Shown here piece after piece: positions 32,881 to 51,563 of a stretch of DNA of 64,000 bases. Under the pieces are notes generated by a model. That model was given only the letters and a program-made list of their open reading frames with translations. It ran no database searches and had not been told where the DNA came from. The stretch spans positions 11,136 to 75,135 of the forward strand of contig JACPHU010000029.1 of NCBI GenBank assembly GCA_016188495.1, given 5' to 3'. A program made the position numbers and the translations under genes. Within the stretch, counting starts at the first letter, position 1, and each line of letters begins with the position of its first letter. This DNA comes from Candidatus Uhrbacteria bacterium. Its GTDB lineage: Bacteria > Patescibacteriota > Patescibacteriia > UBA9934 > GWF2-40-263.

Positions 32881-33059
32881 CCATAGAGAACAATTAAATC
32901 GAGCATCGTTCGGAACGCCCGGACATTCGTTTGTACCAATCAGGTACAAGCGCGTGTCTGGGCGTTTTTATTTATATCACTATTTTTTATGTGCATTCAC
33001 ATCCATTCACCACCTTAAGAAATATTTAGCAATTTTATTTATTCTTAATTTTTATTTTT

Positions 33060-34379
33060 ATGAACGATCTCAACATTATTCATGTCCCCGTCGTGGATCT
33101 CAAACCCGCGGAGTACAATCCGCGTAAGCATTCGCAGGAGCAGATGACCCAACTACAGGAATCCATTAAACGTTTTGGGTTGGTAGATCCGATTATTTGT
33201 AACAACGCTTCCGAGCGCAGCAACATCGTCATTGGCGGCCACTTTCGTTTGGAGGCTGCTAAAGCTCTTGGCTATACAACAATTCCGGTCGTGTACGTTC
33301 ATATCCCCGAGATTGAAAAGGAAAAGGAACTCAATGTCCGGCTCAACAAAAACACAGGGGAGTTTGATCTGGACCTGCTCGCCCAGTTTGATGAGTCATT
33401 TCTGCAAGACATAGGTTTTGATTCAGAAGAACTTGATGACATCTTTCCAGCCGAGGAGAACCCGGAAGTCTTTGATCTAAAAAAAGAACTCGAGAAGCTC
33501 AACATTAGTGAAGTCACTGTGCAAAAAGGAGATGTCTATGAACTGGATGGATCCAGGCTTATGTGCGGCGACTCCACGATAGAAGAAGACATGCTCAAAC
33601 TGCTTGGTGAACACCAGGCTGATATGTGCCTCACGGATCCGCCATACATCCTCGATTACCTCAAAGGAAAAAAGAAGAACGGTGAACCTACTGAAGGATT
33701 TGGGTATAAAAGGGATCGTAAGTATCTGGAGACGGATGTTCTTCCACCAGATTTCACAGAGAAATGGATGGACAACGTCGCGAAAGTTGCTAAACCTGAC
33801 TTCTCTATTATCTGCTATGAAAATTGGAAAAATCTGCGGGTCATTTGGGGTGAAATGGAAAAACATTGGAAGGTAAAAAATATGATCGTCTGGCATCTCC
33901 CTAATCGTCATCAAGGATATTCGGCGAAAAATAAGTTTTTCAACAAGCATGATATTGCTGTGGTCGGTGCTTCGGGTGACATTCCCTACAACATCGATGA
34001 GGAAGAGCAACCGTTGCAAGAGGAGTACGAAACAGCACTCTTTGCCACAGAAGGTAAACCGCATTGGGAAACGTACGAGAAAGGGAAAAAAGATTGTCCG
34101 ACAGATTTCATTGAGTTTATGGCTTCAGACGAGAAACATTCCGGCCAAGGGGTGGTATTTGGCACCAAGCCAATCGACATCCTTATTCCGTACATCAAAG
34201 TCCTTACCAAACGCGACAGTCTGATCCTTGAACCCTTCGGCGGATCTGGATCAACACTCATCGCCGCTGTCCATATGAAACGCCGATGTTTCCTCATGGA
34301 AAAGTGTCCGACCTATGCTCAAGTTATTCTCCAAAGATGGGAAAAACAAACCGGGCAAAAGCCTTTTAAAATTACATGA
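33060..34379 (+). CDS. ParB-like nuclease domain fused to beta-class N6A/N4C DNA methyltransferase
   Basis: ParB N-terminal region (IICNN...GGHFRLEAAKALG). Motif IV CLTDPPYIL precedes motif I EPFGGSGSTLIAA. Confidence 0.8.
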   Translation: MNDLNIIHVPVVDLKPAEYNPRKHSQEQMTQLQESIKRFGLVDPIICNNASERSNIVIGGHFRLEAAKALGYTTIPVVYVHIPEIEKEKELNVRLNKNTGEFDLDLLAQFDESFLQDIGFDSEELDDIFPAEENPEVFDLKKELEKLNISEVTVQKGDVYELDGSRLMCGDSTIEEDMLKLLGEHQADMCLTDPPYILDYLKGKKKNGEPTEGFGYKRDRKYLETDVLPPDFTEKWMDNVAKVAKPDFSIICYENWKNLRVIWGEMEKHWKVKNMIVWHLPNRHQGYSAKNKFFNKHDIAVVGASGDIPYNIDEEEQPLQEEYETALFATEGKPHWETYEKGKKDCPTDFIEFMASDEKHSGQGVVFGTKPIDILIPYIKVLTKRDSLILEPFGGSGSTLIAAVHMKRRCFLMEKCPTYAQVILQRWEKQTGQKPFKIT

Positions 34380-34861
34380 TTGACCCTGAAGTCAAAATTA
34401 AGTTTCTTGAAGAAGTCGCGCAAACCGGCAACATCTGTGTATCTTGCCGGAAGGTTAACATTGTCAGATCGACCATCTATCGTTGGAAGAAAGGGGATAA
34501 GGAGTTTGCAAAGAAGTTAAGAGAGGCTGAAAAATTAGGAAGAGAAAACCTCTGCGATCTAGCCGAACACAGCCTCGCCCTTCTTGTTAAGGAAAAGAAT
34601 CTTCAGGCCATTAAGTACGTTCTCACTCATAACTCGAAACGTTATCGTCCAAGATATGATAGTAAGGTTATTTTGGAACACAGGAGCCCTGATCGGGATA
34701 AAGACAAAGGACCTGCCTTTACGCTTGAAGACATGATAGATCGAATGTACGGAAATTCTACAGAAAATTTCCAACCATACCCACAAAAGAATAGAGATAA
34801 CCAGAATGTGATGCCACCCGATCAGGTACAGACATCGAATGGGGAATCAGAGGAGCATTAA
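34376..34861 (+). CDS. HTH protein, phage terminase small-subunit-like
   Basis: KFLEEVAQTGNICVSCRKVNIVRSTIYRWKK HTH. 4-nt overlap with the upstream methyltransferase gene. Confidence 0.4.
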   Translation: MIDPEVKIKFLEEVAQTGNICVSCRKVNIVRSTIYRWKKGDKEFAKKLREAEKLGRENLCDLAEHSLALLVKEKNLQAIKYVLTHNSKRYRPRYDSKVILEHRSPDRDKDKGPAFTLEDMIDRMYGNSTENFQPYPQKNRDNQNVMPPDQVQTSNGESEEH

Positions 34862-35637
34862 ACTGTCGGTGCATCTTCGCTTTCGGTTGGGTGTTCCTTC
34901 AGTCCTTCCTCTTTTTTGTCTCTCACATCTTTCTTTATCCGTGAAAGGCTAACTGATCCTTTGGGCTTTTGCGACTCGATCTTGTTCACAATAATCTCGT
35001 GGATGGAGTCCAGAATATCTGATTCCGAAAAAGAAAGGTGAGCGTCACGCTTCAAAATTCTCCGCAAAAATCGAATGATGTCGGTAGAATAAAGATACTT
35101 GCACAGATTGTTCGGTTCCAAGGCTTGGAAACGTTTCCAGAAAGCATCAAGCTCTCCATGGGTCAGAAATTTCTTGTGAAGAAGCATGAGGCCTTCTGAG
35201 GCCTCATTGAGAATGGAGATGTCTCGCAGATCAAAGGCAAACAATCGTTTGTATGTGACGGGTTTCTTGAAGATCACCCGGTACACCTCAAAGGATCGGC
35301 CGTTGGTAAGCAGTACCCAGTCAATCCCTTCGTTTGCGGCATATCCTATAGCCTGACGAAGATGATTCTCGGAAAGATCAATCTGAATGGCTTTGACTTC
35401 AACGACCAGATGTTTTTTCCGATCAACCTGGATGACATAATCGGCATAGGCTCCGCTGATCATGTGTTCGGTACGAATTTCTTCCAGTTCCGCGTATCCC
35501 AGGAGATCCGTCAGAAACGTGTTAATCATGAGTCTCGTGGCAGATTCATCCAGGTCAGCATACTTGGCTTTAAGATATTTGTTGCGGTATTCCCGGAGTT
35601 TTGCAAGGAACGCTTTGTGTTGTATTTGGGTGGGCAT
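34858..35637 (-). CDS. HsdR_N/Mrr-like restriction endonuclease-fold protein
   Basis: ADYVIQVDRKKHLVVEVK matches the D-x-(D/E)VK PD-(D/E)xK core of the HsdR N-terminal family. Confidence 0.45.
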   Translation of the reverse strand: MPTQIQHKAFLAKLREYRNKYLKAKYADLDESATRLMINTFLTDLLGYAELEEIRTEHMISGAYADYVIQVDRKKHLVVEVKAIQIDLSENHLRQAIGYAANEGIDWVLLTNGRSFEVYRVIFKKPVTYKRLFAFDLRDISILNEASEGLMLLHKKFLTHGELDAFWKRFQALEPNNLCKYLYSTDIIRFLRRILKRDAHLSFSESDILDSIHEIIVNKIESQKPKGSVSLSRIKKDVRDKKEEGLKEHPTESEDAPTV

Positions 35638-35662
35638 AAAGATTTATAGATGGTCTATCTCT

Positions 35663-36664
35663 TTAAAATGTGTCTTTATTCCCATCGACGTAAACGATTG
35701 TCGAAACGTTCCATTTGTATTTCAAATTTTTCAATTCAGTATTTTTTAACTTCACGTCTTCATCCATGAACTGATTGTAATCGATTCCTGATTCCCAAAT
35801 TTTGCTCTCTTTTGCAGGAATTTCCTTATCGTAACTTATGCTCTTTGTAGAAATTTCGTTGTCAAAAATATCATAAAAAGTCAGAGTGCCCTCAACACCT
35901 CTTATTTCTTTATCTGTGTTGTTGGTAAATTTCAGGCTCATCGTAATTTGATCCTGATAACTGCCAGACATATAGTCAGCCTGATGGAATCCTTTGTCTG
36001 TAATTTCGAGAGTGACTTTTTGCAGTTCTATTTTTGCTTGTTCAGTATTGGCTGGAACCATCTGGTTTGCGCCACCTTGTTGGAGGCTGCTTTCCAATTG
36101 CTTCTTTTCCTGAGTTGGTTGTTGCGTATTTTGAGTATTGGACGTGGAACCAAGGACAAGAGCCAGGACAATCAAGGCAAAAATTGAGAGGATAACGCCA
36201 TGTTTTGCCGCAAGCGTTTCTGGTTGTTTGGCGTGTTCCGTATCTACCTTCTTTGCATAACTTCCACAAACAAGATGCATGATGATTCCCATCGTAAGAC
36301 CAACGACACACGCGATGACGACAACGAAGGTTCCTCCAATTGCTGTTCCGATGGCGGCTCCGGCCTGCTCGCCCGCGCTGGTTGTGGAACTCACAGCTTG
36401 GGCTCCCAGAACAAACGTCATGATAATGGCAGAAATAGGCATGAAGAAAAAGGCTACTTCCATCAAACGAAAGTATCGTTCAAAAACAGCATTCTTGCTT
36501 TCAAAGGACCAGGAGGTCCAGACAACGAACACAAATAAAAGAATGAATGCAAGCCCCATGGATTTATTGGCGGTCATCCATGAATAATTGATGAAAAAAA
36601 TGAAGGTTGGTAAAAGAGCGACCAAAAGTTTGAGAAGCAGATGCTTCTTTGGTGTTTTCTCCAT
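35663..36664 (-). CDS. hypothetical membrane protein with extracytoplasmic C-terminal domain
   Basis: Multiple TM helices in the first 170 aa, then a soluble C-terminal half. Confidence 0.45.
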   Translation of the reverse strand: MEKTPKKHLLLKLLVALLPTFIFFINYSWMTANKSMGLAFILLFVFVVWTSWSFESKNAVFERYFRLMEVAFFFMPISAIIMTFVLGAQAVSSTTSAGEQAGAAIGTAIGGTFVVVIACVVGLTMGIIMHLVCGSYAKKVDTEHAKQPETLAAKHGVILSIFALIVLALVLGSTSNTQNTQQPTQEKKQLESSLQQGGANQMVPANTEQAKIELQKVTLEITDKGFHQADYMSGSYQDQITMSLKFTNNTDKEIRGVEGTLTFYDIFDNEISTKSISYDKEIPAKESKIWESGIDYNQFMDEDVKLKNTELKNLKYKWNVSTIVYVDGNKDTF

Positions 36665-36712
36665 AGGATGAAAAAGAGATAAGAATAATAGATGATTTAA
36701 ACCTCATTTATA

Positions 36713-36868
36713 AAAACAAAAAGGACACCCCTGAGGTGTCTAGACCCAAGTAACAGGACCGGAGTCGCTGCTGCTTGTTTTATCAGGAGTGCCCGTTATG
36801 ACGCATCAACGGACTCCTGAATAGCAAAGCAAAGCCCTGCTGCGGGTCTCTGTTACTTGAATCTAGAC
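36713..36868 (-). ncRNA. candidate structured RNA / riboswitch-like leader with intrinsic terminator (class not identified)
   Basis: On the minus strand a 19-23 bp closing stem (gtctagattcaagtaacag / ctgttacttgggtctagac) encloses the hairpin caggagtccgtt...aacgggcactcctg. A gacacc-tcagg-ggtgtc hairpin followed by ctttttgttttt lies 40 nt upstream of the 36664 start codon. Confidence 0.35.
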
Positions 36869-36950
36869 GTTTAAAGTTTAACATAAAACCCCTTGAAGTA
36901 AAGGGGTTTAATGAAAGTTACTCACTTCGAGATTTGAGGGCTTTAAAGCA

Positions 36951-38420
36951 TTATTCGCTCAAATTGTTGTGTAACCAATTACGTAAAAACTCTGTCGCGC
37001 GCACATCGTCTTCATTATAATTAACAATGTCGTTCAAAATACTTCTGTCATTTTTTTCCAACCATTCTTCATACCAAAAGATTGACTGTGCCCCTCCTGC
37101 TTTTACATGACGCCATTTGAAGTTGAGGAACTTGGATTTGGCGATATCTTTGATGGAGTAAAAATACAAAGGAAAAATAACCGAGTCTCTGACAACGATT
37201 TCCAAATCTACAAAATGAGACATGAACCTTCGCAGAGGATCTGAATCTCCATAGAGCTTGGCTAATTTTTCGCATTGTACCCGCTCGTATTTATTGTAAT
37301 GCCAAACGGTAAACTTCTCTTGAGGTAAAATCTCCAACCATTGCAAAAAAAGTTTCCACATTTCTCGTTCGTCCTCTGGCTGCTCGGCCAGAAAATAAAC
37401 GAAGTAACGCCCATCCTCCTGTTTTCGCACGTGACCTATTTGCGCATATACACCATCAGGATCACCTGAAACCCAAAAACCCCAAAGATACTGCACATCG
37501 ATGAGAGGATCGCCCTCGATGTCAAAATAAATATTGAGTGCCGTTTCGGGGAGTACTGGATGTCCGACCCATTTCAATTCACCGCTCAAAAGCGATTGTG
37601 CCTGGAGTCTCACACGACGAAGGGTATCAATTCCTGCATAAGGAACTTTTGGAAGTGTATCAACATCCATCTCTGCCGCATCTGTTACGGTATTGATACC
37701 GCACTCACGCAAGACTTCATGAGATCGAGAATCCAGACGATATAACAAGGCAATATCATGTGCCTTCTCCGCTTCGGCGACACATTGCGAATACCAAGGA
37801 CTGTATTTACATGAAGAAGAAAGCTTGAGTGGCGGTTTTTTTCCTTTCATTACAGAAAGAATCACATCGATACGATCAAACGTTTTGATTCGATGTTTTT
37901 CTTCAATTGAAAAAGCAATACGCCCATGATCTCGATTGATAATACTAACGTCCTGCGGAAACACTTTTTGAAGTTCCTCAAGAATTTTTGCGTACAGTGT
38001 CAACTGCATCCATTGCTCGGGTTTGATATCAGTCGAGCTTTTGATGTCGCAGGGAGCGTAGTAATAATCACCGAATTCAGACTCTTTATCGTACCTCTTC
38101 TCAAGAAGATCGGGTCGACCGCGATAAAGGACTCCGTTCATTTCAGATTCAATTTCTCCTTGGTAGATAAGCTCAACTCCTTCGCGCATAAGCATCATAG
38201 TGTGAGCAAAGGCATCCGCAGGTTTTCTTTCTTCGACCTCAACAAACGAAAGACCTTTCACATATTTTTCCTCATGCAAAATACCTTTCTCAAGAAGTTT
38301 CTCCATGAGCGCCGGTGTTTCTCCCTTCTTGGATAAATCAGAAAAACGATCATGCCACAACCAATGTGGGCATGTTGCGTATTGAAAAAAGAGGGATGGG
38401 GTGAAAACGAGACGAGGCAT
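36951..38420 (-). CDS. TM0106-family RecB-like nuclease (Cas4-like N-terminal domain + RNase H-like C-terminal domain)
   Basis: N-terminal CPHWLW Cys motif. YFDIEGDP in the C-terminal half. Confidence 0.55.
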   Translation of the reverse strand: MPRLVFTPSLFFQYATCPHWLWHDRFSDLSKKGETPALMEKLLEKGILHEEKYVKGLSFVEVEERKPADAFAHTMMLMREGVELIYQGEIESEMNGVLYRGRPDLLEKRYDKESEFGDYYYAPCDIKSSTDIKPEQWMQLTLYAKILEELQKVFPQDVSIINRDHGRIAFSIEEKHRIKTFDRIDVILSVMKGKKPPLKLSSSCKYSPWYSQCVAEAEKAHDIALLYRLDSRSHEVLRECGINTVTDAAEMDVDTLPKVPYAGIDTLRRVRLQAQSLLSGELKWVGHPVLPETALNIYFDIEGDPLIDVQYLWGFWVSGDPDGVYAQIGHVRKQEDGRYFVYFLAEQPEDEREMWKLFLQWLEILPQEKFTVWHYNKYERVQCEKLAKLYGDSDPLRRFMSHFVDLEIVVRDSVIFPLYFYSIKDIAKSKFLNFKWRHVKAGGAQSIFWYEEWLEKNDRSILNDIVNYNEDDVRATEFLRNWLHNNLSE

Positions 38421-38434
38421 AATTTACCGATTCT

Positions 38435-39391
38435 TTGACAGAATTACATAACAAAGGTAGCATGTCTAATGTAAATAAGTCAAGATTTTATTACATTGTG
38501 AAGTGGACAATAGAAAACCAAACCGAGTTACAATCCGCATTCCTTGCGGGGTCTTTGGGTGCCTGGCGAGAAGCTTTTGAAGATTTTCAGGCTCCGACAA
38601 ATCTCCTACTTACTCATGAAGCACTTCTAGCCTTCACTGCCGAGACCATCGCAGACGATGATGATCCTACGGTTGTGTGTGCTAAGCGATACGCGAGTTT
38701 TCTTACGTCTATGCGAGCTCCGAATGACATTACTATTCAAGTATTGATCGAATGGCATAAGACACTTTTCGACAATCCCAGTGGATATCGCTTCAAACCA
38801 GGCGAGCTTAAGTCCAAGGAAGTTTCCATTCAACTTATTGAATTATTAGGTGAACTGAACCAGGAGTGGGTAGACCCGTTCACGAACATGCATCTGATTT
38901 ATACGGCGTTTATTAAGCTCTCACCGTTTCACGCTGGCAACGAAATAATGGCAAACGCTCTTCTTCACCTCATGCTCATGCATTTCAAGCTAACCACAAC
39001 GCCATCACTCCTACTTTCAAAGTTCGTCCCCGTGCAGGAGGACCTGACTTACGACAATTTTCTGCAGGGACTTCTAGAAGCACAGGAACACCTTCAGTCC
39101 ATTTATCAATCCGTAAGGATATTACAAAAACAATATCGAGATCGTGTAATGACTCTTGAGACCAGGCCAAAAAAGTTAGCTAATGACCTACTGTCATTCT
39201 TTCTTGAGCGGAAATCGTTCACTGTTCGCGAGATCGAATCCGCCTACGGCAAAAAGTATAAAATCACCTACCACACGCTTAACAAGCTTATGACGCAACT
39301 GGCCGAAGACCTCCATCTACTTGAAATCATCAGCTGGGGCGAGCGAAACCGCATGTTCTCACTCAAAGGATATCGAAAATTTTTTACCTAA
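38435..39391 (+). CDS. Fic/DOC-family protein (degenerate Fic motif)
   Basis: LSPFHAGNEIMANALL resembles HPFx(D/E)GNGR. First gene of the Type I R-M operon (3-nt gap to hsdM). Confidence 0.45.
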   Translation: MTELHNKGSMSNVNKSRFYYIVKWTIENQTELQSAFLAGSLGAWREAFEDFQAPTNLLLTHEALLAFTAETIADDDDPTVVCAKRYASFLTSMRAPNDITIQVLIEWHKTLFDNPSGYRFKPGELKSKEVSIQLIELLGELNQEWVDPFTNMHLIYTAFIKLSPFHAGNEIMANALLHLMLMHFKLTTTPSLLLSKFVPVQEDLTYDNFLQGLLEAQEHLQSIYQSVRILQKQYRDRVMTLETRPKKLANDLLSFFLERKSFTVREIESAYGKKYKITYHTLNKLMTQLAEDLHLLEIISWGERNRMFSLKGYRKFFT

Positions 39392-39393
39392 AT

Positions 39394-41433
39394 ATGACAA
39401 ACAACTTTCGAGAAAAAGCACAGCTCATCTGGAACATTGCCGACGTCCTACGTGGAAGTTGGAAACAACACGAGTATCAAGACGTTATTCTCCCGCTTGT
39501 GGTTGTGAAGCGACTGGATTCTATTTTGGCACCAACGAAACCCAAGGTGCTTCAGCAGTACAACGAACTGAAATCTAAGATCGATATTGATCCTGTGTTG
39601 AAATCAACATCGAAAGTCGGATTTTATAACGTATCCGAGTACGACTTTGAAAAGCTCCTCGAAGACCCGGATCATATTTCAGGAAACTTCAAGCATTATC
39701 TAAATGGGTTCAGTGAGAACATTCAGGACATTGTCGAAAAGTTTGAATTTGACCGCCAGCTCTCGAGACTTGAAGGAGGTAACCTTCTCTATCTCATCAT
39801 TAAAGAGCTTAATAAAGTGGATCTGCACCCAGATGTTGTCGATAACCATGAGATGGGATCGATCTTCGAAGAGCTGATTCGCCGATTCTCTGAGCAGTCC
39901 AACGAAACAGCTGGTGAGCATTATTCTCCGCGTGATGTTGTAAGACTTGCGGTAGAGATCCTGCTTGCACCGGACAAGGCACGTTTGGAAAAAGAACACA
40001 TCATTAAAACAGTTTACGATTGCGCGTGTGGTACAGGTGGAATGTTGTCTATTGCGAAAGAATATATTCAAAAAGAAGTGAATGATAAGGCAAACATCTA
40101 TTTGTATGGCCAGGAGCTCAACCCGGTCACATACGCCATGTGCAAGTCTGACATGCTAATTAAGGGCGAGAACCCAGACAACATTAAGGGCGGAGAAAAA
40201 GACCATTCACTTGCCAGCACGCTTTCCAACGATCAATTTTTTGGCACGCACTTCGACTACATGTTGACGAACCCACCTTTTGGAGTGGACTGGAAGAAGG
40301 ATATGGACGTGGTAGAGCGCGAAGCTGAACGCGGATACGCAGGGCGTTTTGGTGCAGGACTTCCACGGTCTTCTGATGGTCAGCTTCTCTTCCTACAGCA
40401 TCTTCTTTCAAAAATGCGACCCGAGAGCGAAGGCGGATCCCGTATTGGAATTGTCTTTAACGGGTCTCCTCTCTTTACAGGAAATGCTGGACAAGGTGAA
40501 AGCGAAATCCGTCGCTGGATTCTGGAACATGATTGGCTTGAAGCTATTGTCGCGCTTCCTGATCAACTCTTTTTCAACACTGGAATTCCAACTTACCTTT
40601 GGTTTATAACCAATCGAAAGTCAGATGAACGCAAAGACAAAGTCCAAATCATCGACGCGCGTGCATTCTCTGAGAAGATGCGAAAGAGTCTTGGCAACAA
40701 ACGCAACTTCATCACGGAAGAATTTAGAAAAAAGGTTTTAGAGGTTTACGCAGATTTCAGTGAAAACGAATACTCGAAGATCTTTAGCAATGAAGAGTTT
40801 GGGTACCGACAAATAACCGTTGAGCGTCCACTAAAGCTCAATTTTCAGGTATCACCGGAGCGGATCGCGGCACTTAAAGAGGAGTCAACATTCCAGAAAT
40901 TAGCAACATCCAAAAAGAAAGGAGAGAAAGGAAAAGAAGAGATTGAAGCCGGGCTGAAGCTTCAACAGCAGGTCATCACAACATTCAATGAAATGCCGAG
41001 TGAATTGTTTAAGAATGGAAATGAATTCGTGAAACTCCTTGAGGGGGTTTGGAAGAATAACGATCTCAAGCTACCTGCTCCACTGAAAAAAGTAGTGATA
41101 GATGCCTTATCTGAACAGGATGAATCCGCCAACGTATTTTTAGACAGCAAAGGTAAACAGCAAGCAGACACGAATTTGCGCGACACAGAAAACGTGCCGT
41201 TGAATCAGGATGTTTACGACTACTTTGCAAAAGAGGTAAAGCCCTATGTTCCTGATGCATGGATTGATGAAAGTAAGACAGACCACAAAGATAACAAGGT
41301 TGGAAAAGTTGGCTATGAAATTCTCGTCACTCGATTCTTCTACAAGTACGAGGCACCACGGTCACTGGATCAGATTCAGAAGGATATTGAGCAGGTTGAG
41401 AGTGAGTTAGATTCACTGATTAAGCAGATGTAG
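39394..41433 (+). CDS. hsdM: Type I restriction-modification N6-adenine methyltransferase subunit
   Basis: N-terminal HsdM domain (LWNIADVLRG). Motif IV LTNPPFGVDW. 679 aa. Confidence 0.9.
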   Translation: MTNNFREKAQLIWNIADVLRGSWKQHEYQDVILPLVVVKRLDSILAPTKPKVLQQYNELKSKIDIDPVLKSTSKVGFYNVSEYDFEKLLEDPDHISGNFKHYLNGFSENIQDIVEKFEFDRQLSRLEGGNLLYLIIKELNKVDLHPDVVDNHEMGSIFEELIRRFSEQSNETAGEHYSPRDVVRLAVEILLAPDKARLEKEHIIKTVYDCACGTGGMLSIAKEYIQKEVNDKANIYLYGQELNPVTYAMCKSDMLIKGENPDNIKGGEKDHSLASTLSNDQFFGTHFDYMLTNPPFGVDWKKDMDVVEREAERGYAGRFGAGLPRSSDGQLLFLQHLLSKMRPESEGGSRIGIVFNGSPLFTGNAGQGESEIRRWILEHDWLEAIVALPDQLFFNTGIPTYLWFITNRKSDERKDKVQIIDARAFSEKMRKSLGNKRNFITEEFRKKVLEVYADFSENEYSKIFSNEEFGYRQITVERPLKLNFQVSPERIAALKEESTFQKLATSKKKGEKGKEEIEAGLKLQQQVITTFNEMPSELFKNGNEFVKLLEGVWKNNDLKLPAPLKKVVIDALSEQDESANVFLDSKGKQQADTNLRDTENVPLNQDVYDYFAKEVKPYVPDAWIDESKTDHKDNKVGKVGYEILVTRFFYKYEAPRSLDQIQKDIEQVESELDSLIKQM

Positions 41434-41435
41434 AT

Positions 41436-42272
41436 ATGAATCGTGAACAAGAACAAAAGGCTAAAGAAGTCATGGGGCACGAAGACGTGTTTAGTGCTCT
41501 TGTTGAGATTTGTAAAAATCGTGAAACAGAATCGGTCGGAAATTATGGATATGAAATCTACATTCCACGAGTTATAGATAAATGGTGTCTAGCAAACATG
41601 GAGCAACTGGGAATCACAAGATGTGATTCAAATGAAACTGAGAAATGGAAAGAGCCTTTGTCTCCATACTTCTACAACGCTGCTTGGGAGCTTTGTCGAT
41701 TGGGTGTCCTTCGACCAGGTGTAACACATCACCATGCACAAGCTACCGATGACGGAAACGCAGGTAATGGATATTCTGTTACGCCATTTGGCGAACAATG
41801 GCTTCAGGAGTCAGGACCAGAATACGTTCCGACAGAACCGGGTCGTTTCGCTACACTTCTTGAACCGTTTGCAAAAGCATTTGGTCCTGGATTTCACGAA
41901 CGAGCCCAACAAGCTATTCGTTGTTACAACGCCCATGCGTATCTTGCCGCCTGTGTTATGTGCGGAGCGGCTGCAGAGTCTATTCTGCTTCAACTCGCCA
42001 TTACGAAGAATGGTGACGAGGGTGCAACACTCAACCTTTATCGTCGATCTGATGGAAGAAAGAAGATCGAGGATTTGATCATTGGCCAGCAGAAGGGTGG
42101 TGTAAAAGCTGACTTCGAAGTGTGCTTCGCTCTTCTGAAGTATTGGCGTGACGAAAGTGCGCATGGTCGAAGGTCTGAAATTGGTGAGGCGGAAGCATTC
42201 ACGTCGCTTGCATTGTTATTGAGAGCCGCACAGTTCGCTCACGATAATTTTCAGATGTTAACGGCTAAATGA
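41436..42272 (+). CDS. HEPN-like (DUF4145-type) protein inserted between hsdM and hsdS
   Basis: C-terminal helical domain ending in KYWRDESAHG (Rx4H HEPN motif). 3-nt gap upstream and 4-nt overlap downstream. Confidence 0.4.
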   Translation: MNREQEQKAKEVMGHEDVFSALVEICKNRETESVGNYGYEIYIPRVIDKWCLANMEQLGITRCDSNETEKWKEPLSPYFYNAAWELCRLGVLRPGVTHHHAQATDDGNAGNGYSVTPFGEQWLQESGPEYVPTEPGRFATLLEPFAKAFGPGFHERAQQAIRCYNAHAYLAACVMCGAAAESILLQLAITKNGDEGATLNLYRRSDGRKKIEDLIIGQQKGGVKADFEVCFALLKYWRDESAHGRRSEIGEAEAFTSLALLLRAAQFAHDNFQMLTAK

Positions 42273-43603
42273 ATATGAAATACGCATTACGAGACAAAAA
42301 AGAGATGAAAGATACAGACCTCACGGGCATCAATTGGATCCCGCGTGGCTGGTCGGTCTTGAAACTAAAACAGTTGACCGATCGACCCTTCCAATATGGT
42401 CTAAACGAATCGGCTATTGATAATGTAGACGGGGATCCCCGCTACATCAGAATTACAGACATCACAACCAGCGGATCGCTTAGAAAAGATACTGTTAAAA
42501 CAATGTCTTCTGAAAAAGCTCGTGGATATATTTTGCAGGATGGCGATTTATTGTTCGCCCGCTCAGGAGCCACGGCAGGAAAACCTTTCATGTATCGTGA
42601 ATTCGACGGTGTAAGTTGTTTTGCGGGATACTTGATTCGCTTCGTCCCGAATAAAGACAAACTATTTCCCCGTTTCCTAGATTTTGTGTCACAGTCTGCT
42701 TATTACGAGAGCTGGAAAAATAGCATTTTTATTCAGGCGACCATTCAAAACATTAGTGCGGACAAGTATAAAGAATTTCTAATTCCCATTCCTTCAACCG
42801 ACGACCAAAAACGTATTGCTGACTTCCTCGATGAAAAAACGGTGGTGATTGATGAGGTGGTGAAGAAGAAAAAGAAGCAGATTGAACTACTAAAAGAAAA
42901 ACGCGATGCACTTATTACTCAGGCTGTGACGAAGGGTCTTAATTCGAATGTGAAGATGAAAGATTCGGGTGTTGAGTGGATTGGCGAGATTCCAGAGGGG
43001 TGGAATTTAGTTAGACTTCGTAGAGTTGTTTCACTAAATCCTTCAAAGCAAGAGTCTAAACATATTTCAGAAGATAGTGACGTTACATTTCTGCCGATGA
43101 CAAAGGTATCTTCTAAAGGCACATTCGATAAAGAAGTTGTTTCAAAAAAGAATGATGTTGCGACTGGTTTCACCTATTTTCGTAACGGTGATGTTATTAC
43201 TGCCAAGATCACGCCTTGTTTTGAAAACGGAAAAGGAGCGTTGGTAAATGATTTAGTAAATGGCATTGGTTTTGGATCGACTGAATTCACTGTTATTCGG
43301 CCAAGCTCTTCAATTAATGGTACGTATCTGTACTACCTAGTGCATTCAGAGATGTTTAGAAAATCTGGTGGGCCGTGGATGTATGGTTCCGCTGGACAAC
43401 AACGCGTGCCCGACAGGTTCATTAAAGAGTTTCAAGCACCGCTACCATCGATTGAGGAACAGGAGAAAATTGTAATGCAACTGGATAGAGGGCTGAACTT
43501 ACTAGACAGATCAATAAAAACGATTCAAAAATCAATAAAACTAATTCAAGAATACCGTTCGTCGCTCATCTCACATGTGGTGACTGGGAAGATTGTTGTA
43601 TGA
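42269..43603 (+). CDS. hsdS: Type I restriction-modification specificity subunit
   Basis: Two target-recognition domains separated by the conserved central coiled-coil EFLIPIPSTDDQKRIADFLDEKT and a C-terminal repeat of it. Confidence 0.85.
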   Translation: MNMKYALRDKKEMKDTDLTGINWIPRGWSVLKLKQLTDRPFQYGLNESAIDNVDGDPRYIRITDITTSGSLRKDTVKTMSSEKARGYILQDGDLLFARSGATAGKPFMYREFDGVSCFAGYLIRFVPNKDKLFPRFLDFVSQSAYYESWKNSIFIQATIQNISADKYKEFLIPIPSTDDQKRIADFLDEKTVVIDEVVKKKKKQIELLKEKRDALITQAVTKGLNSNVKMKDSGVEWIGEIPEGWNLVRLRRVVSLNPSKQESKHISEDSDVTFLPMTKVSSKGTFDKEVVSKKNDVATGFTYFRNGDVITAKITPCFENGKGALVNDLVNGIGFGSTEFTVIRPSSSINGTYLYYLVHSEMFRKSGGPWMYGSAGQQRVPDRFIKEFQAPLPSIEEQEKIVMQLDRGLNLLDRSIKTIQKSIKLIQEYRSSLISHVVTGKIVV

Positions 43604-44427
43604 AGAACTTTCTTGAAACATATCCTTTGTACAAATGGATTGAATTCCAAGCAACCGAGGATCACGAAAAGTATAAAGATGTAAAAGTCCATCCCCCTGC
43701 AGTCAATTTAGATTGTTCTATATGTGAATCAAAGCAAACATATCGAGTTTATGAAGATGGATCGCTAGCTAATTTTGGTGGACATCACGATAACAACATT
43801 TATCGTCTTGAATATGTTTGCGCAGGATGCAAATCTGCAAATATAGAGTTTTTACTTTTCGTCCATCGGAGTAACGGCCACGATGCAAAGAGCAAGAAAT
43901 ATCTCTACAAAATGAAAATTCAAAAAATTGGTCAGTTTCCTGCTTGGTCCATTAATCCAGACCCGGGGATATCCAAATTGTTAGGTGAGCATGTAGATAC
44001 GTATAAAAAGGGGTTGGTTTGCGAATCTCAAGGTTACGGTATAGGGGCATTTGCGTATTACCGAAGGATCGTCGAAGATAACGTCGAGTCGTTACTGAAT
44101 CAAATCAAAGAATTAGTCGAGGATGAAACTGATGTAGTAAAAGGCATTGAAGAAGTGAAGGCTGAACATAATACAGAGCAAAGAATCAGGATTGCATCGA
44201 CCGTACTTCCAGAGTCGCTACAAGTGGCCGGGAACAATCCTCTTTCGGTAATTTATAGTGCTTTGAGTGAAGGGTTACACGTACAAGATGATGAGACCTG
44301 TCTAAATTTGGCGCACAATATCCGTGAAGCGCTGACATATTTAGTGCATCAAATTAATCTACAAACACAAGGTAAAAGACAATTTACGGAGAGTTTAAAA
44401 CAGATTGTAATCGCTAAAACTAAATAG
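43600..44427 (+). CDS. hypothetical Zn-ribbon protein embedded in the Type I R-M operon
   Basis: CSIC...CAGC Zn-ribbon then about 170-aa helical domain. Translationally coupled (4-nt overlap with hsdS). Confidence 0.45.
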   Translation: MKNFLETYPLYKWIEFQATEDHEKYKDVKVHPPAVNLDCSICESKQTYRVYEDGSLANFGGHHDNNIYRLEYVCAGCKSANIEFLLFVHRSNGHDAKSKKYLYKMKIQKIGQFPAWSINPDPGISKLLGEHVDTYKKGLVCESQGYGIGAFAYYRRIVEDNVESLLNQIKELVEDETDVVKGIEEVKAEHNTEQRIRIASTVLPESLQVAGNNPLSVIYSALSEGLHVQDDETCLNLAHNIREALTYLVHQINLQTQGKRQFTESLKQIVIAKTK

Positions 44428-44428
44428 T

Positions 44429-44689
44429 ATGCCATTGCCAGATAATTATAAAGATCTAATTCTTGAGAAACTCAAGGAAAAAGGTGCGATACCTCTGTGT
44501 GAGATTTGTCAGCACAATGACTGGGCAGTTGTGGATCAGGCTATTAGTGCACCAATTTCAGATTTGACTGGAGGAATGAGGATCCCGCAACCGCAGATCC
44601 CTTGTGCTGGTCTCATTTGCAACAACTGCGGAAATTTAAGACTTTTCGCTCTTGGTGCGTTGGGTATTGATGTTAATCCGAAAAAGTAG
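44429..44689 (+). CDS. small Zn-ribbon protein (86 aa)
   Basis: CEIC...CNNCG. Starts 2 nt after the previous stop. Confidence 0.4.
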   Translation: MPLPDNYKDLILEKLKEKGAIPLCEICQHNDWAVVDQAISAPISDLTGGMRIPQPQIPCAGLICNNCGNLRLFALGALGIDVNPKK

Positions 44690-44692
44690 GAT

Positions 44693-45106
44693 ATGCCTGA
44701 CTATATTCATCATGATCCTGATCGCATTCTCTATTCGTTATCTGAAGATGAACTGGAGAATCTTTCAAATCAAGCACAATCACTTTGGAAGGACGTATGT
44801 CTCGTATCATTTTCGGTTGGGATCCCAACTGTAATTAATGCCATTGCAGAATTAAGTAATCAAGAAACATTTCAAATAACGATAACCATTTTCTTAAATA
44901 TATTGATTGGCATCATGGGGATTGCACTTGGAATAGTTTTTGCTATTGCTTGGCACCGATCACATAAGTCAATTAAAAATGTTATGGATAATATAAAAGC
45001 GAGACCAAAGATTGAATTGAATCCTACTACCTCCAATGTTGGAGCTCTGGAGGATCTCCGAGGAGAACTCAAAAAGATTGCGAATCAGCCTGCAAGATGG
45101 GGGTAA
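44693..45106 (+). CDS. small 2-TM membrane protein (137 aa)
   Basis: Two strong hydrophobic helices (VCLVSFSVGIPTVINAIAEL; ITIFLNILIGIMGIALGIVFAIAW). Starts 4 nt after the previous stop. 10 nt before hsdR. Confidence 0.4.
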   Translation: MPDYIHHDPDRILYSLSEDELENLSNQAQSLWKDVCLVSFSVGIPTVINAIAELSNQETFQITITIFLNILIGIMGIALGIVFAIAWHRSHKSIKNVMDNIKARPKIELNPTTSNVGALEDLRGELKKIANQPARWG

Positions 45107-45115
45107 ATAATATAT

Positions 45116-48070
45116 ATGAAAATCACGAATACGAAAGAAATCGGCTTTGAGGAATATATCGAGAAACAGCTCGTCGAAGTTAATGGATACAAGAAACAGT
45201 CCAATACTGCCTATCAACGGAATCTTTGTTTAGATCCGGAGATGGTCTTGGAGTTTATTAATGTCACTCAGGCTGATGCGTGGGGTGAACTTCTCAAGAT
45301 GCATGGTGAAGATATTAACGAGAAGTTCTTTAAGCGGTTATCGGATGAGGTTCGTGACCGCGGGGTGCTTGATGTTCTTCGGAATGGTTTTGCGGATCAT
45401 GGCGTAAATTTCAAGATGGCATATTATCCTCCCAACTCGGGGATGAATGAGGAGACGATTCGTTTGTTCGAGTCGAACGTACTTAGTGCCATGCGACAGG
45501 TTCACTACAGTGAAAAAGATGTTGATTTGTCTTTGGACACGGTTATTTTCCTCAACGGTCTTCCTATCTTTACTATTGAATTGAAAAACCAGCTCACTGG
45601 TCAAAGTGTTCAAAATGCCATTCGCCAATATCGAACAGATAGAGACCCTAAGGAACCTTTGTTTGTGTTTAAGCGATGTTTGGCGCATTTTGCCGTAGAT
45701 ACTAAGCAGGTCTACATGACGACAAAGCTGGCGGGGCTCAAAACGTATTTCTTGCCATTTAATAAGGGATACAATAGCGGCGCGGGAAATCCTCCAAATG
45801 CAGATGGATACATGACCTCTTATCTTTGGGAAGATATTTGGACAAAGAAAAGCGTGCTCGAGCTCGTAGGGAAATTTATCACGCTGCAAAAAGAAAAAGA
45901 TGTTGACAGTAAAGGGCGTGAGATTATTAAAGAGAAACTCATCTTTCCCCGTTACCATCAACGCGACACGGTTCAGCGTTTGATAGCTGACGCACGTGAT
46001 AATAGTGCCGGACAGAACAATTATCTGATTCAACATAGCGCAGGGAGTGGAAAGAGCAATACGATCGGATGGACGGCACATCGATTGTCTGAACTTTATA
46101 ATGCAGATGACAAAAAGGTGTTTGACACGGTTTTGGTTATTACAGACCGGCGTGTTCTCGATCGGCAATTGCGAGACACTGTTACGCAGTTTGAACAGCG
46201 TGCGGGTGTTGTAAAAGCGATCACGGAAGGATCAAAGGAATTGCAAGAAGCATTGGAGGGCGGTGAGAAAATCATCATCACAACTTTGCAGAAGTTTCCA
46301 TTCATCGTTGACTCCATCGGAAATCTTCCCGGTAAGAACTTTGCGGTCATTATTGACGAAGCGCATTCTTCACAATCCGGAGAAGGTGCCGCAAACTTGC
46401 GGGAAGCTTTGACAACGAATGATTTGAGCGATGCAGAGAAACAGGAGTCAGATGAACCTGAGACGACGGAAGACATGGTGTTGCGCAAGCTTCGCAGTCG
46501 AAAGATTAAGACAGACAACATCAGCTTCTTTGCGTTTACAGCCACACCCAAGCAAAAGACGTTGGAGTTGTTTGGGACAAAAAGCCCAATTGATGGCAAG
46601 TATTATCCATTTAGCCTTTACTCGATGAAGCAGGCTATCGAAGAGCGTTTTATTCTTGATGTGCTGAAGAATTACACAACGTATCAGGCGTATTTTGCTT
46701 TGTTGAAAAAAGTTGAAGACGACCCGGAGTTTGATAAGAAAAAGGCACAAAGACTGCTTATTGGATATGTTGAGAAACATGAGCATGCGATAGCGAAAAA
46801 AGTGGAGATCATGGCCGAGCACTTCAGAGCTCGTATTGCTAAAGAGATACATGGCAAAGCAAAGGCGATGATCGTCACAAAATCTCGGCTGCACGCTGTT
46901 CGTTACAAGCAAGCGATGGATGTCTATCTACGCGAACATAACTATCCGTTCAAGGCATTGGTCGCATTCTCCGGAGTCGTAAAGGATGGTGTGAGTGAAT
47001 ATTCTGAGGGGGGAATGAATGGTGTTTCAGAAAAGCAAACGGCGGAGACATTTAAGCAAGATGATTATCGGTTCTTGATTGTTGCTGAGAAGTTTCAAAC
47101 GGGATTTGATCAGCCGTTGCTAGGTGCTATGTACGTTGATAAAAAGCTCGGAGGAGTGAACGCCGTACAAACATTGAGTCGTTTGAACCGTACGACATCC
47201 GATAAGGAAGAAGTGCTCGTGTTGGATTTTGTGAATGACATGGATGATATCAAGGAAGCGTTCCAGCCATATTACACAACGACTGTTTTGTCGGAGGGTA
47301 CTGACCCAAATATTCTTCATGACTTGGAGCGAGATCTCTATGCCTTTAAGTTATTTACACAGCATGAGGTTGATGGATTTGTACATGAGTTATTTCACAA
47401 TGCATCTCCAGCAACCATTAATGCAATCCTAGATAAGGTTATTGAGCAATACCATGAAGGTCTTCCACAAGAACAGGAGGACTTTCGTAAAAAGTGCACA
47501 GATTTTGTGCGTCGATATGCGTTTGCAGCTCAAATTATTCCATACGAAAGTTCTGAACTTGAAAAGCTATACACATTCACACGTCTTCTCTTGAAAAAGA
47601 TTCCACGTGTAAAAGAAGCTTTGCCAACAGATGTATTGGATAGCGTCGACATGGAATCATATAAGCTCGTACATCGTGGACAGGATGCTATTCGCTTGGA
47701 GGATGAGCTTGGAAAGCTTGATCCAATGCAGAGTGGACAAAAGGGTGAAGATATAAAAGAGCATGACCGTCTCTCAAAAATTATCAATGATATAAACGAC
47801 CGGTTCGGCACAGAGTTTTCTGTTGAAGATGTTGTGATCACAAATCAGCTTGGAGAACGTTTGGTGAATAACCCAATGCTTCAGGGATCAATCAAAAACA
47901 ACACCCGCGATGCCGCGAAGATCAAGTTTGACGAAGTTCTCGGACAAGAGTTGGTTGAAATGTTAAACCGTCATTTCGACTTTTATAAAAAACTCGATAA
48001 AAATCCTGACTTGAAGACCTACTTCGGTGAAAAAATGTTCGATCATGTTGTAAATGCGGTAAAAAAATAA
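45116..48070 (+). CDS. hsdR: Type I restriction enzyme endonuclease/translocase subunit
   Basis: N-terminal PD-(D/E)xK (DTVIFLNGLPIFTIELKNQ). SF2 helicase motifs (AGSGKSNT; DEAH in VIIDEAHSSQ). 984 aa. Confidence 0.9.
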   Translation: MKITNTKEIGFEEYIEKQLVEVNGYKKQSNTAYQRNLCLDPEMVLEFINVTQADAWGELLKMHGEDINEKFFKRLSDEVRDRGVLDVLRNGFADHGVNFKMAYYPPNSGMNEETIRLFESNVLSAMRQVHYSEKDVDLSLDTVIFLNGLPIFTIELKNQLTGQSVQNAIRQYRTDRDPKEPLFVFKRCLAHFAVDTKQVYMTTKLAGLKTYFLPFNKGYNSGAGNPPNADGYMTSYLWEDIWTKKSVLELVGKFITLQKEKDVDSKGREIIKEKLIFPRYHQRDTVQRLIADARDNSAGQNNYLIQHSAGSGKSNTIGWTAHRLSELYNADDKKVFDTVLVITDRRVLDRQLRDTVTQFEQRAGVVKAITEGSKELQEALEGGEKIIITTLQKFPFIVDSIGNLPGKNFAVIIDEAHSSQSGEGAANLREALTTNDLSDAEKQESDEPETTEDMVLRKLRSRKIKTDNISFFAFTATPKQKTLELFGTKSPIDGKYYPFSLYSMKQAIEERFILDVLKNYTTYQAYFALLKKVEDDPEFDKKKAQRLLIGYVEKHEHAIAKKVEIMAEHFRARIAKEIHGKAKAMIVTKSRLHAVRYKQAMDVYLREHNYPFKALVAFSGVVKDGVSEYSEGGMNGVSEKQTAETFKQDDYRFLIVAEKFQTGFDQPLLGAMYVDKKLGGVNAVQTLSRLNRTTSDKEEVLVLDFVNDMDDIKEAFQPYYTTTVLSEGTDPNILHDLERDLYAFKLFTQHEVDGFVHELFHNASPATINAILDKVIEQYHEGLPQEQEDFRKKCTDFVRRYAFAAQIIPYESSELEKLYTFTRLLLKKIPRVKEALPTDVLDSVDMESYKLVHRGQDAIRLEDELGKLDPMQSGQKGEDIKEHDRLSKIINDINDRFGTEFSVEDVVITNQLGERLVNNPMLQGSIKNNTRDAAKIKFDEVLGQELVEMLNRHFDFYKKLDKNPDLKTYFGEKMFDHVVNAVKK

Positions 48071-48082
48071 TAATCAAATATA

Positions 48083-48112
48083 AAAAAACTGTCGTACCCA
48101 CGACGGTTTTTT
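48083..48112. terminator. bidirectional intrinsic terminator
   Basis: aaaaaaa-ctgtcgt-accc-acgacgg-tttttt, 13 nt after the hsdR stop. Confidence 0.65.
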
Positions 48113-48207
48113 ATGTCCACAATGTTACCTACAAGTTACCTACTCCTCCTACTAGGCACCCGGGACAGACGCGGTAATGTGTGGGTCATAAGGAGTAAAC
48201 AATTCTT

Positions 48208-49542
48208 ATGTACGCACAAAACACGAACAACGATCCCGGCAAAGCCATACCAATCCGCTACTGCCTTTACGCGAGAAAATCGTCCGAGGATGACGAACGC
48301 CAGGCATTATCAATCGAGAGTCAGGTTAAGGAGGCACTTGAACTTGCTACGAGAGATGGCTTGAATGTTGTCGAAGTTCGCCGTGAAAGTCATTCTGCGA
48401 AAAGCTCCGGGTCACGCCCGGAGTTTAATCGTTTAATTGGGGACATTCGGGAAAAGAAATTCGACGGAATCCTAACATGGGCGGCGGATCGCATAAGTCG
48501 TAACGCCGGTGATCTTGGAACCGTTATCGATCTCATGGATCAAGGACTGCTTCGAGAAATTCTTACGCATGGCACAAAGTTCACCAACTCACCGAGCGAC
48601 AAGTTCATGCTCATGATGATGTGTGGTCAGGCAAAGCTGGAGAACGATAACAAGGGTGTGAACGTGAAGCGTGGGTTTCGGGCAAAGATCGAGATGGGTT
48701 TTCGACCAAACATGTCACCACTCGGATACCTCCACGATAAATATGCAGAAAAAGGAACATGTAAAATCTTTATGGATCCTGTTCGTGGACCAATTATCAA
48801 AGAAGTATTTCATAAAGTTGCCTACGAAGGTTGGACTGGGCGCAGCGTAAAACGCTGGCTCGATGATGAAATGAAGCTCACGACGCGCAAAGGTAAACAG
48901 GTATCGCTCAGCATGATCTACCGCATGATGGATAATTCGTTCTACACGGGTCGCTACGAGTTCCCGCAAGGAAGTGGAAAATGGTACGACGGTAAGCACG
49001 AGGCACTCATCACGAAGGATATATTTGATCGTGTGCAAGAAGTCATGAAATGCGCTCCGAAGGCGTTACCGGGAACTCACGAATTCGCCTTCACAAGAGT
49101 CTTCAAGTGCGGTGAGTGTGGATCCGGTATCAGCGCAGACCAAAAAGTGAAACGACTGAAAGACGGAACGACAAAACGATACGTCTACTATGGATGTATG
49201 AAGCGTTGGATGACAGGATGCAAACAGCCGTACATTCGCGAGGAGGAGTTGCTCGACCAGCTCTACAAAATCATCGATAAGGTAAACATCAATGAACTTG
49301 CAGCTATCGAGCGAATCAAACAAGAAATTGAGCGACTGACGAAGATGATCTCAAGCCTCGGCGGTCACATCGCGACCGCAAAAGTCGCCGAAATCATGCC
49401 GGACATCGATGTCTACGCTTGCGCGAAATACATCTTGAAAGAAGGCACCAAAGACGAGAAACGTGATCTGCTTAATCACATCAATACTGAATTGTTGATC
49501 TCTGACGGAAAGATAAGCTTCAAGGGTAAGGCTAAACGCTAA
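48208..49542 (+). CDS. large serine recombinase (resolvase/invertase catalytic domain + recombinase domain + zinc ribbon)
   Basis: YARKSSEDDERQALSIESQ with catalytic Ser, resolvase fold. CGECGSGISADQ zinc ribbon. AGGAG RBS. Confidence 0.85.
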   Translation: MYAQNTNNDPGKAIPIRYCLYARKSSEDDERQALSIESQVKEALELATRDGLNVVEVRRESHSAKSSGSRPEFNRLIGDIREKKFDGILTWAADRISRNAGDLGTVIDLMDQGLLREILTHGTKFTNSPSDKFMLMMMCGQAKLENDNKGVNVKRGFRAKIEMGFRPNMSPLGYLHDKYAEKGTCKIFMDPVRGPIIKEVFHKVAYEGWTGRSVKRWLDDEMKLTTRKGKQVSLSMIYRMMDNSFYTGRYEFPQGSGKWYDGKHEALITKDIFDRVQEVMKCAPKALPGTHEFAFTRVFKCGECGSGISADQKVKRLKDGTTKRYVYYGCMKRWMTGCKQPYIREEELLDQLYKIIDKVNINELAAIERIKQEIERLTKMISSLGGHIATAKVAEIMPDIDVYACAKYILKEGTKDEKRDLLNHINTELLISDGKISFKGKAKR

Positions 49543-51407: not shown

Positions 51408-51496
51408 CTCAAAGACTAAACAAAAAATCGCCATTTTTTAATGACGATTTTTTGACAAAGCATGTGGGTCACTTCACACGCTTTCTCATGGCTCGG
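51408..51496. repeat. ~85-bp direct repeat, tRNA-proximal copy (tRNA 3' end + terminator hairpin + flank)
   Basis: Near-identical to 25821..25897. Overlaps the last 8 nt (GAGCCA...) of tRNA-Asn. Confidence 0.7.
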
Positions 51497-51563
51497 GGGG
51501 CGGGATTCGAACCCGCGACCAATTGGTTAACAGCCAACTGCTCTGCCACTGAGCTACCCCCGA
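51489..51563 (-). tRNA. tRNA-Asn (anticodon GTT), CCA encoded
   Basis: Minus-strand cloverleaf folds by hand. Acceptor TCGGGGG/CCCCCGA. D-arm GCTCAGTGGCAGAGC. Anticodon loop CTGTTAA. T-arm GCGGGTTCGAATCCCGC. Discriminator G then CCA. Confidence 0.85.

Follow-up and report, generated by a model that had tools for sequence, protein, structure and literature searches.

Type I restriction-modification (R-M) loci, like those of BREX, DISARM and Hma, often carry further genes embedded in them, of which 96.7% are co-oriented (Payne et al. 2024, bioRxiv 10.1101/2024.01.29.577857). Under the name 'guilt-by-embedding', this pattern has led to working defences (10.1101/2024.01.29.577857), and it is exemplified by TgvAB in V. 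cholerae VPI-2 (PMC11411939) and by prrC. In these systems, as in C. jejuni with its rlo genes, accessory genes for defence or toxins, RNase (HEPN) effectors included, stand co-oriented between hsdM, hsdS and hsdR, and their content varies among relatives. HEPN proteins of the DUF4145 type have been listed as 'in operon with R-M' (Anantharaman et al. 2013, PMC3710099), and RAZR is an abortive-infection system that joins a zinc finger to a DUF4145 RNase (PMC13017515). Here we describe a Type I R-M operon with small genes lodged at both of its internal junctions, in a 64,000-nucleotide stretch of contig JACPHU010000029.1 (positions 11,136 to 75,135, forward strand; assembly GCA_016188495.1) from Candidatus Uhrbacteria bacterium. 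This whole stretch is called the window, and coordinates are window positions unless a locus number (L004, L008 and so on) precedes them. The host is an uncultured bacterium of the candidate phyla radiation (CPR), a group with small genomes that are regarded as poor in defences.

Anatomy of the locus

The open reading frame (ORF) listing bears out the eight co-oriented genes of the initial annotation, all on the + strand between 38462 and 48070:

38462..39391, + strand: degenerate Fic-fold protein, 309 amino acids (aa), with a C-terminal winged helix-turn-helix (wHTH)-like region (Pfam, PADLOC, alignment)
39394..41433, + strand: hsdM, Type I m6A methyltransferase subunit, 679 aa (Pfam, NCBIfam, PADLOC, motifs)
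41436..42272, + strand: P3, wHTH-like N-domain and HEPN (DUF4145-like) C-domain with R238-x4-H243; cargo of the hsdM-hsdS slot
42269..43603, + strand: hsdS, specificity subunit with two target-recognition domains, 444 aa (Pfam, PADLOC)
43600..44427, + strand: P5, Cys4 zinc-ribbon/beta N-domain and helical HEPN-like C-domain, 275 aa; leads the cargo in the hsdS-hsdR slot
44429..44689, + strand: P6, small protein of 86 aa with a Cys4 zinc ribbon; leads the P6-P7 pair
44693..45106, + strand: P7, membrane protein with two transmembrane (TM) segments, 137 aa; partner of P6
45116..48070, + strand: hsdR, restriction/translocase subunit, 984 aa (domains, PADLOC, motifs)

Pfam, NCBIfam, PADLOC and motif evidence agrees with the earlier reading of the three hsd genes as canonical. 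HsdM matches N6_Mtase (1.8e-60), HsdM_N (3.7e-22) and PADLOC MTase_I (8.5e-274), and has DCACGTG at residue 209 and NPPF at residue 293. HsdS matches Methylase_S (4.6e-21) over two stretches and PADLOC Specificity_I (2.7e-95) over residues 12-444. HsdR combines HSDR_N, ResIII, SWI2_SNF2 and T1R_D3-like domains with a D..ELK nuclease motif of the PD-(D/E)xK type and the SF2 translocase motifs GSGKS, DEAH and TAT; it matches PADLOC REase_I (3.5e-38), and its match to TIGR00348 (9e-62) scores 209.5 bits, under the curated cut-off of 284.55. All three subunits look intact, and the R-M system looks functional. Between the window and the sister locus L008 the identity is 75% for hsdM and 36% for hsdS, as expected with variable target-recognition domains.

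The locus has the arrangement of the embedded systems cited above, and the picture of a tightly packed, co-oriented Type I R-M operon interleaved with genes of toxin or Abi type is supported. It differs from those systems in that the cargo P3, P5 and P6-P7 is without a PADLOC match, HEC models included, and in that both slots are filled at once, with three cassettes, in a CPR host.

Cargo turnover in the R-M lineage

In 50 related loci hsdM and hsdR share a strand. At least one extra co-oriented ORF lies between the two genes in 44 of these, and only 6 are bare M-S-R. The 93 distinct embedded proteins fall into roughly 55 BLAST clusters; they include ATPases of the OLD/GajA/AriA/HEC-01A type with TOPRIM, NYN, Shedu SduA, GmrSD and RhuM proteins, as well as DUF3644-HEPN, MazF, HigB-like, AbiEii and canonical Fic proteins and a DRT UG13b reverse transcriptase (L033). 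The architecture had been called unusual, a judgement that neither these relatives nor the published pattern sustains (10.1101/2024.01.29.577857; PMC11411939; PMC3710099): the layout is normal for this enzyme lineage, and the understanding of Type I R-M or of embedded defences is left unchanged by it. The proposal of a composite defence locus fits the comparative data, with known defence genes in the same two slots of relatives.

Six sister loci, the window included, have six different cargo combinations, so that cassette turnover is clear within one R-M lineage:

Window: hsdM-hsdS slot, P3; hsdS-hsdR slot, P5, P6 and P7
L113: hsdM-hsdS slot, P3 (86% identical); hsdS-hsdR slot, three unrelated small genes
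L008: hsdM-hsdS slot, X179; hsdS-hsdR slot, P6 and P7
L034: hsdM-hsdS slot, u141; hsdS-hsdR slot, P6 and P7
L118: hsdM-hsdS slot, outside the contig; hsdS-hsdR slot, P5
L033: hsdM-hsdS slot, none; hsdS-hsdR slot, DRT

We consider it probable that this is an active Type I R-M system whose two junctions act as exchange slots for autonomous cassettes, co-expressed with restriction and serving as independent second layers. Small defence or toxin cassettes would enter and leave at the hsdM-hsdS and hsdS-hsdR junctions, and the conserved hsd genes on either side probably allow this exchange through homologous recombination. The window would then hold three independent cassettes, P3 in the first slot and P5 and P6-P7 in the second; the tight, translationally coupled arrangement would have them co-expressed with restriction, and most likely they would act as separate second-layer abortive-infection or toxin functions. 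P3, P5 and P6-P7 are each also found on their own, away from R-M loci.

The shared orientation of the genes, their 4-nt overlaps and the one terminator at the end could also be read as signs of a new defence machine of many subunits, to which each of the eight genes would be essential. Such an integrated system is highly improbable in view of the relatives: the R-M backbone is intact in those lacking each insert, the six sister loci have six cargo sets, and six relatives are bare M-S-R. The cassettes are therefore unlikely to be subunits of one eight-protein machine.

Of the three small genes in the second slot of L113 (L113:8614-9673), one encodes 163 aa and has an N..AH-type motif (NKQIAHLTYDR) that recalls HEPN/Abi proteins, and another encodes 111 aa with a TM helix.

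The P3 cassette

P3 has at least 1,094 homologues, with identity above 50% across phyla. The motif YWRDxxxHG, which holds R238-x4-H243, is invariant in 56 sequences, and the protein matches the four-helix HEPN fold; with both the conserved Rx4-6H motif and the fold in place, the earlier HEPN call for the Rx4H protein stands. Its score against Pfam DUF4145 is 17.9 bits, below the gathering score of 23.1, while a DUF4145 match at E<=0.01 is seen in 23 of 56 P3 relatives. Because the score is under the gathering threshold, P3 is best described as a DUF4145-like relative and not a curated DUF4145 member. Like the DUF4145-type HEPN proteins linked to R-M (PMC3710099), it has Rx4H, the HEPN fold, weak DUF4145 matches and an R-M operon context; it differs from them in its sub-threshold score and in a distinctive conserved wHTH-like N-domain of its own, WELCRRGILRPG...GNGYSITPFG. 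P3 is a predicted HEPN RNase. A PDB sequence search with the P3 profile gave nothing significant, and the two matches in the plasmid collection are both annotated as hypothetical proteins.

The family occurs in several contexts: solitary in L010, after the holin and amidase genes of a prophage in L011, and near an hsdM-Fic-hsdS locus and an MNT-HepT pair in L012. The hsdM-hsdS slot of L113 carries a P3 that is 86% identical to that of the window, at an hsdM identity of only 73%. A metagenome scan with hsdM retrieved 80 loci at 47-81% identity, and P3 is absent from all of them. P3 and P5 were considered as paralogues and the idea was dropped, BLASTP and hhalign giving no similarity between them.

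In four Parcubacteria loci (L114-L117) a P3 homologue is paired with an HNH gene; in L114 (5780-7270) the homologue is 60% identical and a 6-nt gap separates it from an HNH-repeat nuclease gene, with HTH and RelA_SpoT-domain genes adjoining. This pairing may be a different P3-containing system.

The P5 cassette

P5 has at least 767 homologues and matches phrog_25239 at 1e-49. Its invariant residues include C39, C42, C74, C77 and H227, and the P5 model shows a beta-ribbon at the N-terminal Cys4 zinc ribbon, within an extended beta-sheet N-domain. No member of the family among 53 matches Pfam DUF4145, and P5 matches no PADLOC model at E<=0.01; the one match in the phage collection is annotated as a hypothetical protein.

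RAZR/PD-T7-4, the ring-activated zinc-finger RNase (PMC13017515), is the described system nearest to it. As there, an N-terminal Cys4 zinc ribbon comes first; the helical domain behind it, with its invariant His, is putatively HEPN-like, and the gene forms a single-gene unit in prophage and defence contexts. P5 differs in having no PADLOC sequence match, no DUF4145 match in those 53 members and no Arg 4-7 residues before the His, and in its larger size (275 aa) and extended beta-sheet N-domain. P5 resembles RAZR/PD-T7-4 in architecture and is at most a putative member of that family.

P5 stands between hsdS and hsdR in L118 (75% identical, without P6-P7) and in L040, it has a homologue between mod and res of a Type III system in L004, and it is solitary in L005 and L006. 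The L004 homologue is 45% identical and separates the methylase gene from the helicase gene in a Type III-like R-M locus (L004:5375-10397), where HI_1054, DUF2779 and RmuC genes adjoin. A DUF2779 gene flanks the L004 locus, the window operon and L008 alike.

These contexts bear on a coupling of the PrrC type, in which P3 or P5 would be held latent on the Type I enzyme and the RNase would fire once a phage anti-restriction protein disables that enzyme, making a wired two-tier system. The site between the hsd genes mirrors that of prrC, and the HEPN RNase chemistry is common to PrrC (PMC3710099; PMC2610378), so that the locus and EcoprrI-PrrC would be alike in carrying a latent RNase gene within a Type I R-M operon; moreover P3 occupies the same slot of two diverged backbones (the window and L113), and P5 recurs between the subunit genes of both Type I and Type III R-M. 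We nevertheless regard such wiring as unlikely, since members of both families often stand alone, far from any R-M genes, P3 is missing throughout the scanned hsdM clade, and neither protein has the PrrC ABC-ATPase domain. Domain searches found the PrrC/RloC ABC-ATPase N-domain and C-terminal anticodon nuclease in no insert, and the inserts show no PrrC homology and also live without R-M. The reading that we prefer remains that of autonomous cassettes in exchange slots.

The P6-P7 pair

In P6, C24, C27, C64 and C67 are invariant; the family comprises 434 clusters (50% identity) at E<=1e-3, and P6 has no match among Pfam families and none in the phage and plasmid collections. P7 matches nothing in Pfam or PADLOC, and its invariant cytosolic motifs are YIHxDPDR...LWKD in the N-region and IKxKPK in the C-region. 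A word-indexed search returned 3 P7 homologues, and tblastn on the loci found with P6 shows a wider family.

Closer P6-P7 loci were collected by a scan with closer P6 sequences, with P7 homologues sought by tblastn on the loci so found. In all 10 a P7 homologue lies directly 3' of P6. The ten span nine phyla and come from Gammaproteobacteria, Chthonomonas, Thermodesulfobacteriota, Acidobacteria, Bacteroidales, a Nanoarchaeota metagenome-assembled genome (MAG), Desulfosarcina, Chthoniobacter, Planctomycetota and one unclassified MAG. Homologues of hsd, Fic, P3 and P5 are absent from all ten. The intergenic gap of the pair is -8 to +6 nt. P6 is 83% identical to the window protein in L008 and 78% in L009, and the P6/P7 identities are 83%/66% in L008 and 64%/61% in L034. 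Distant P6 homologues in several loci (e.g. L024, L032) have other small membrane proteins downstream.

The initial annotation had treated P5, P6 and P7 as one three-gene module. This grouping comes apart in both directions: the P6-P7 pair fills the hsdS-hsdR slot without P5 in L008 and L034 and stands without it in the 10 loci of other phyla, and P5 occurs without P6-P7 in L118, L040, L004, L005 and L006. Because each occurs without the other, the supposed module is two independent cassettes. As two small, tightly coupled genes of patchy cross-phylum distribution, P6-P7 has the make-up of a toxin-antitoxin (TA)-like pair. Its conservation extends across phyla, from CPR bacteria as far as Planctomycetota and a MAG of Nanoarchaeota; without a Pfam or PADLOC match, it is the freshest lead of the locus.

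Some details of individual loci may be recorded. The pair lies between uvrB and uvrC in a Thermodesulfobacteriota MAG (L017:2788-7748) and beside uvrC in a Planctomycetota MAG (L023:2874-5678), so that DNA-repair genes recur as its neighbours. In a Desulfosarcina MAG an insertion of ~3.4 kb interrupts the P7 homologue, and the P6 homologue is closely preceded by a Transposase_29 gene (L021:5276-9065). In an Acidobacteria locus (L018:2624-3181, P0258) a fusion protein joins a GIY-YIG-like segment (…GCYGLF…VYIGKG…R…) at its N terminus to the P6 zinc ribbon, and other P6 relatives have N-terminal glyoxalase domains or TM segments.

Roles of the cassettes

In the exchange-slot reading, P3 would supply a HEPN RNase layer, P5 a zinc-ribbon sensor with a HEPN-like effector domain in a RAZR-like architecture, and P6-P7 a zinc-ribbon/membrane pair layer. 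Co-transcription of the eight genes, the enzymatic or toxic activity of the cargo, its toxicity at the membrane and its part in phage defence are all predictions of this reading. Several observations weigh against it. P3, P5, P6 and P7 match no PADLOC model. P5 is without the Arg of Rx4-6H: no conserved Arg stands 4-8 residues before H227 (LSEGLH), R155 being invariant but positioned elsewhere, and its HEPN-like fold score is little above that of generic helical bundles. The annotatable neighbours of P6-P7 outside the R-M lineage are housekeeping genes (FtsK, UvrB/UvrC, MacB, def/PriA) and not defence islands. Finally, tight gene packing is a general trait of CPR genomes, and because of this close spacing is by itself weak evidence for an operon.

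The same neighbourhoods might be taken to mean that the cassettes are selfish hitch-hikers, that is addiction or TA-like units settled in permissive, highly transferred loci with no anti-phage benefit to the host. Their patchy spread across phyla at high identity (as with P3), the isolation of P6-P7 among housekeeping genes, the MazF, HigB and AbiEii-type TA genes in the same slots of relatives and the carriage of the locus on a mobile island (see below) would all agree with this. We find it improbable as the full account, because these slots also hold experimentally validated defence families in relatives (DRT, Shedu, GmrSD, Gabija/OLD-type), because embedding has predicted working defences (10.1101/2024.01.29.577857), and because TA and abortive-infection roles can coexist. 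Embedding therefore nominates three candidate defence or toxin families here: the wHTH-HEPN protein P3, the zinc-ribbon protein P5 and the P6-P7 pair.

The Fic-like gene upstream of hsdM

The product of the first gene, named Fic family protein at NCBI (MBI2473996.1), scores 21.4 bits against Pfam Fic, below the 24-bit cut-off, and 6e-14 against PADLOC SoFic; a PDB sequence search gave marginal Fic matches only. In the alignment of the protein to solved Fido/SoFic chains, SPFHAGNEIMAN falls opposite HPFxDGNGRxxR, pairing with HPFPDGNGRMSR, and the active-site pattern HxFx(D/E)GNGRxxR is not matched. The catalytic His and the anion-hole residues are therefore gone, and with the catalytic motif destroyed the gene loses its earlier standing as a candidate toxin. 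The protein is like SoFic and the Fic AMPylases of defence loci in its C-terminal wHTH and, at a borderline level, in its Fic-fold sequence similarity, and an hsdM-adjacent Fic is also present in L012, there between hsdM and hsdS; it departs from them in the missing His and GNGRxxR anion hole and in its length, 309 aa against ~380 aa for the canonical members of the clade.

Of the 80 loci in the hsdM scan, 70 had enough upstream DNA to be checked for Fic, and in 39 of these an ORF with a Fic motif ends at most 60 nt from hsdM. The canonical HPF[LDE]DGNGRxGR is kept by 36 of the 39 genes, whose proteins are ~380 aa long; the window gene is homologous to these canonical Fic genes, which occupy the corresponding position. 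A degenerate, His-less motif like that of the window was seen in the scan only in L008, L033 and L034, all of the window sub-lineage, and the Fic of L113, which was fetched separately, is likewise His-less and short. The GC content at third codon positions is 0.30-0.38 for the cargo genes versus 0.445-0.47 for Fic, hsdM and hsdR, with Fic itself at 0.47. From its linkage to hsdM, the prevalence of the canonical motif and a composition like that of hsdM and hsdR, Fic is an ancestral partner of the R-M clade and not an insert, and its decay to a pseudoenzyme is documented in the window sub-lineage.

If the protein still works, it probably acts through its wHTH or scaffold part. A combined proposal is possible but doubtful: that the His-less Fic persists because it regulates the R-M operon without enzymatic activity and, at the same time, that P6-P7 is an undescribed two-gene system for defence by abortive infection or a membrane effector, in which the zinc ribbon would sense and the membrane protein would execute the response.

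Operon boundaries and transcription signals

The first gene had been started at TTG 38435; ATG 38462 is the most likely start, giving a 309-aa product as in the public gene calls and leaving a divergent intergenic region of 155 nt, and the TTG was dropped in its favour. The seven junctions, earlier described as 3-nt gaps or 4-nt overlaps throughout, measure in order 2, 2, -4, -4, 1, 3 and 9 nt. The operon is bounded by two features:

38307..38461, no strand: divergent intergenic region of 155 nt between the RNase_H_2/DUF2779 gene (- strand) and the operon
48078..48116 (approx.), no strand: intrinsic-terminator-like hairpin of bidirectional type, with an A-run before and a U-run after

The divergent upstream gene encodes 451 aa and ends at 38306, according to the gene calls on identical public contigs. 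The operon promoter presumably lies in the intergenic region; a promoter-like site, TTGACA-17-TAGCAT, is present at 38435-38463 as a consensus match only. The bidirectional terminator proposed for the operon end is confirmed as a hairpin with a dG of -15.3 kcal/mol and a z-score of -4.5, none of 200 shuffles folding equally well. Internal terminators or promoters would have spoken against a single transcription unit. The sequence scan found no + strand terminator-like sites within the operon, and promoter-like sites number 19 there versus 26.8 +/- 5.1 in shuffles, i.e. they are rarer than in shuffled sequence. The top internal match, TTGAGA-18-GATAAT (10/12) at 42219-42248, overlaps the last part of the P3 gene, precedes the hsdS start by 20 nt and could provide a separate start for hsdS and the genes downstream.

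The surrounding island and other features of the window

Beyond the terminator follows a further gene:

48208..49542, + strand: large serine recombinase with Resolvase, Recombinase and Zn_ribbon_recom domains

This recombinase is likely the integrase of the island that bears the operon. The sister island L008, of the same kind, holds a homologue that is 50% identical. Because a serine recombinase follows the operon, its flanks are phage-like and the L008 island is alike, the R-M operon is cargo of a mobile element. The ends of the island were not found. Repeats that would mark att sites or hsdS inversion were looked for with no relevant result, and an Rfam scan likewise gave nothing relevant.

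The phage-like island extends over about 31800-49542 and includes an S24 repressor, a ParB-N6/N4 methylase (33060-34379) and a terminase-small-like HTH gene (34376-34861), with an HSDR_N_2 protein (34858-35637) and the DUF2779/RNase_H_2 gene (36951-38306) on the - strand. A 16-nt inverted repeat (31040-31055 / 49514-49529, 88% complementary) pairs the 3' end of the recombinase gene with a site close to the possible left island edge, and may be due to chance. A tRNA-Asn gene lies near the island at 51489-51563 (- strand). The proteins of the locus are identical to MBI2473996-MBI2474002 of a Candidatus Uhrbacteria MAG, and identical contigs are present in three Logan runs (SRR12113418, SRR12113419 and SRR12113422).

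Elsewhere in the window, a single-module protein resembling nonribosomal peptide synthetases (NRPS) at 2648-5572 (- strand) and an asparagine-synthetase-like gene at 6333-8237 (- strand) are separated by one 253-aa ORF. Together they make up a small biosynthetic cluster, uncommon in the CPR (Uhrbacteria) group. The adenylation domain matches gramicidin synthase at 4e-153, and the C-terminal domain resembles the MxaA reductase.

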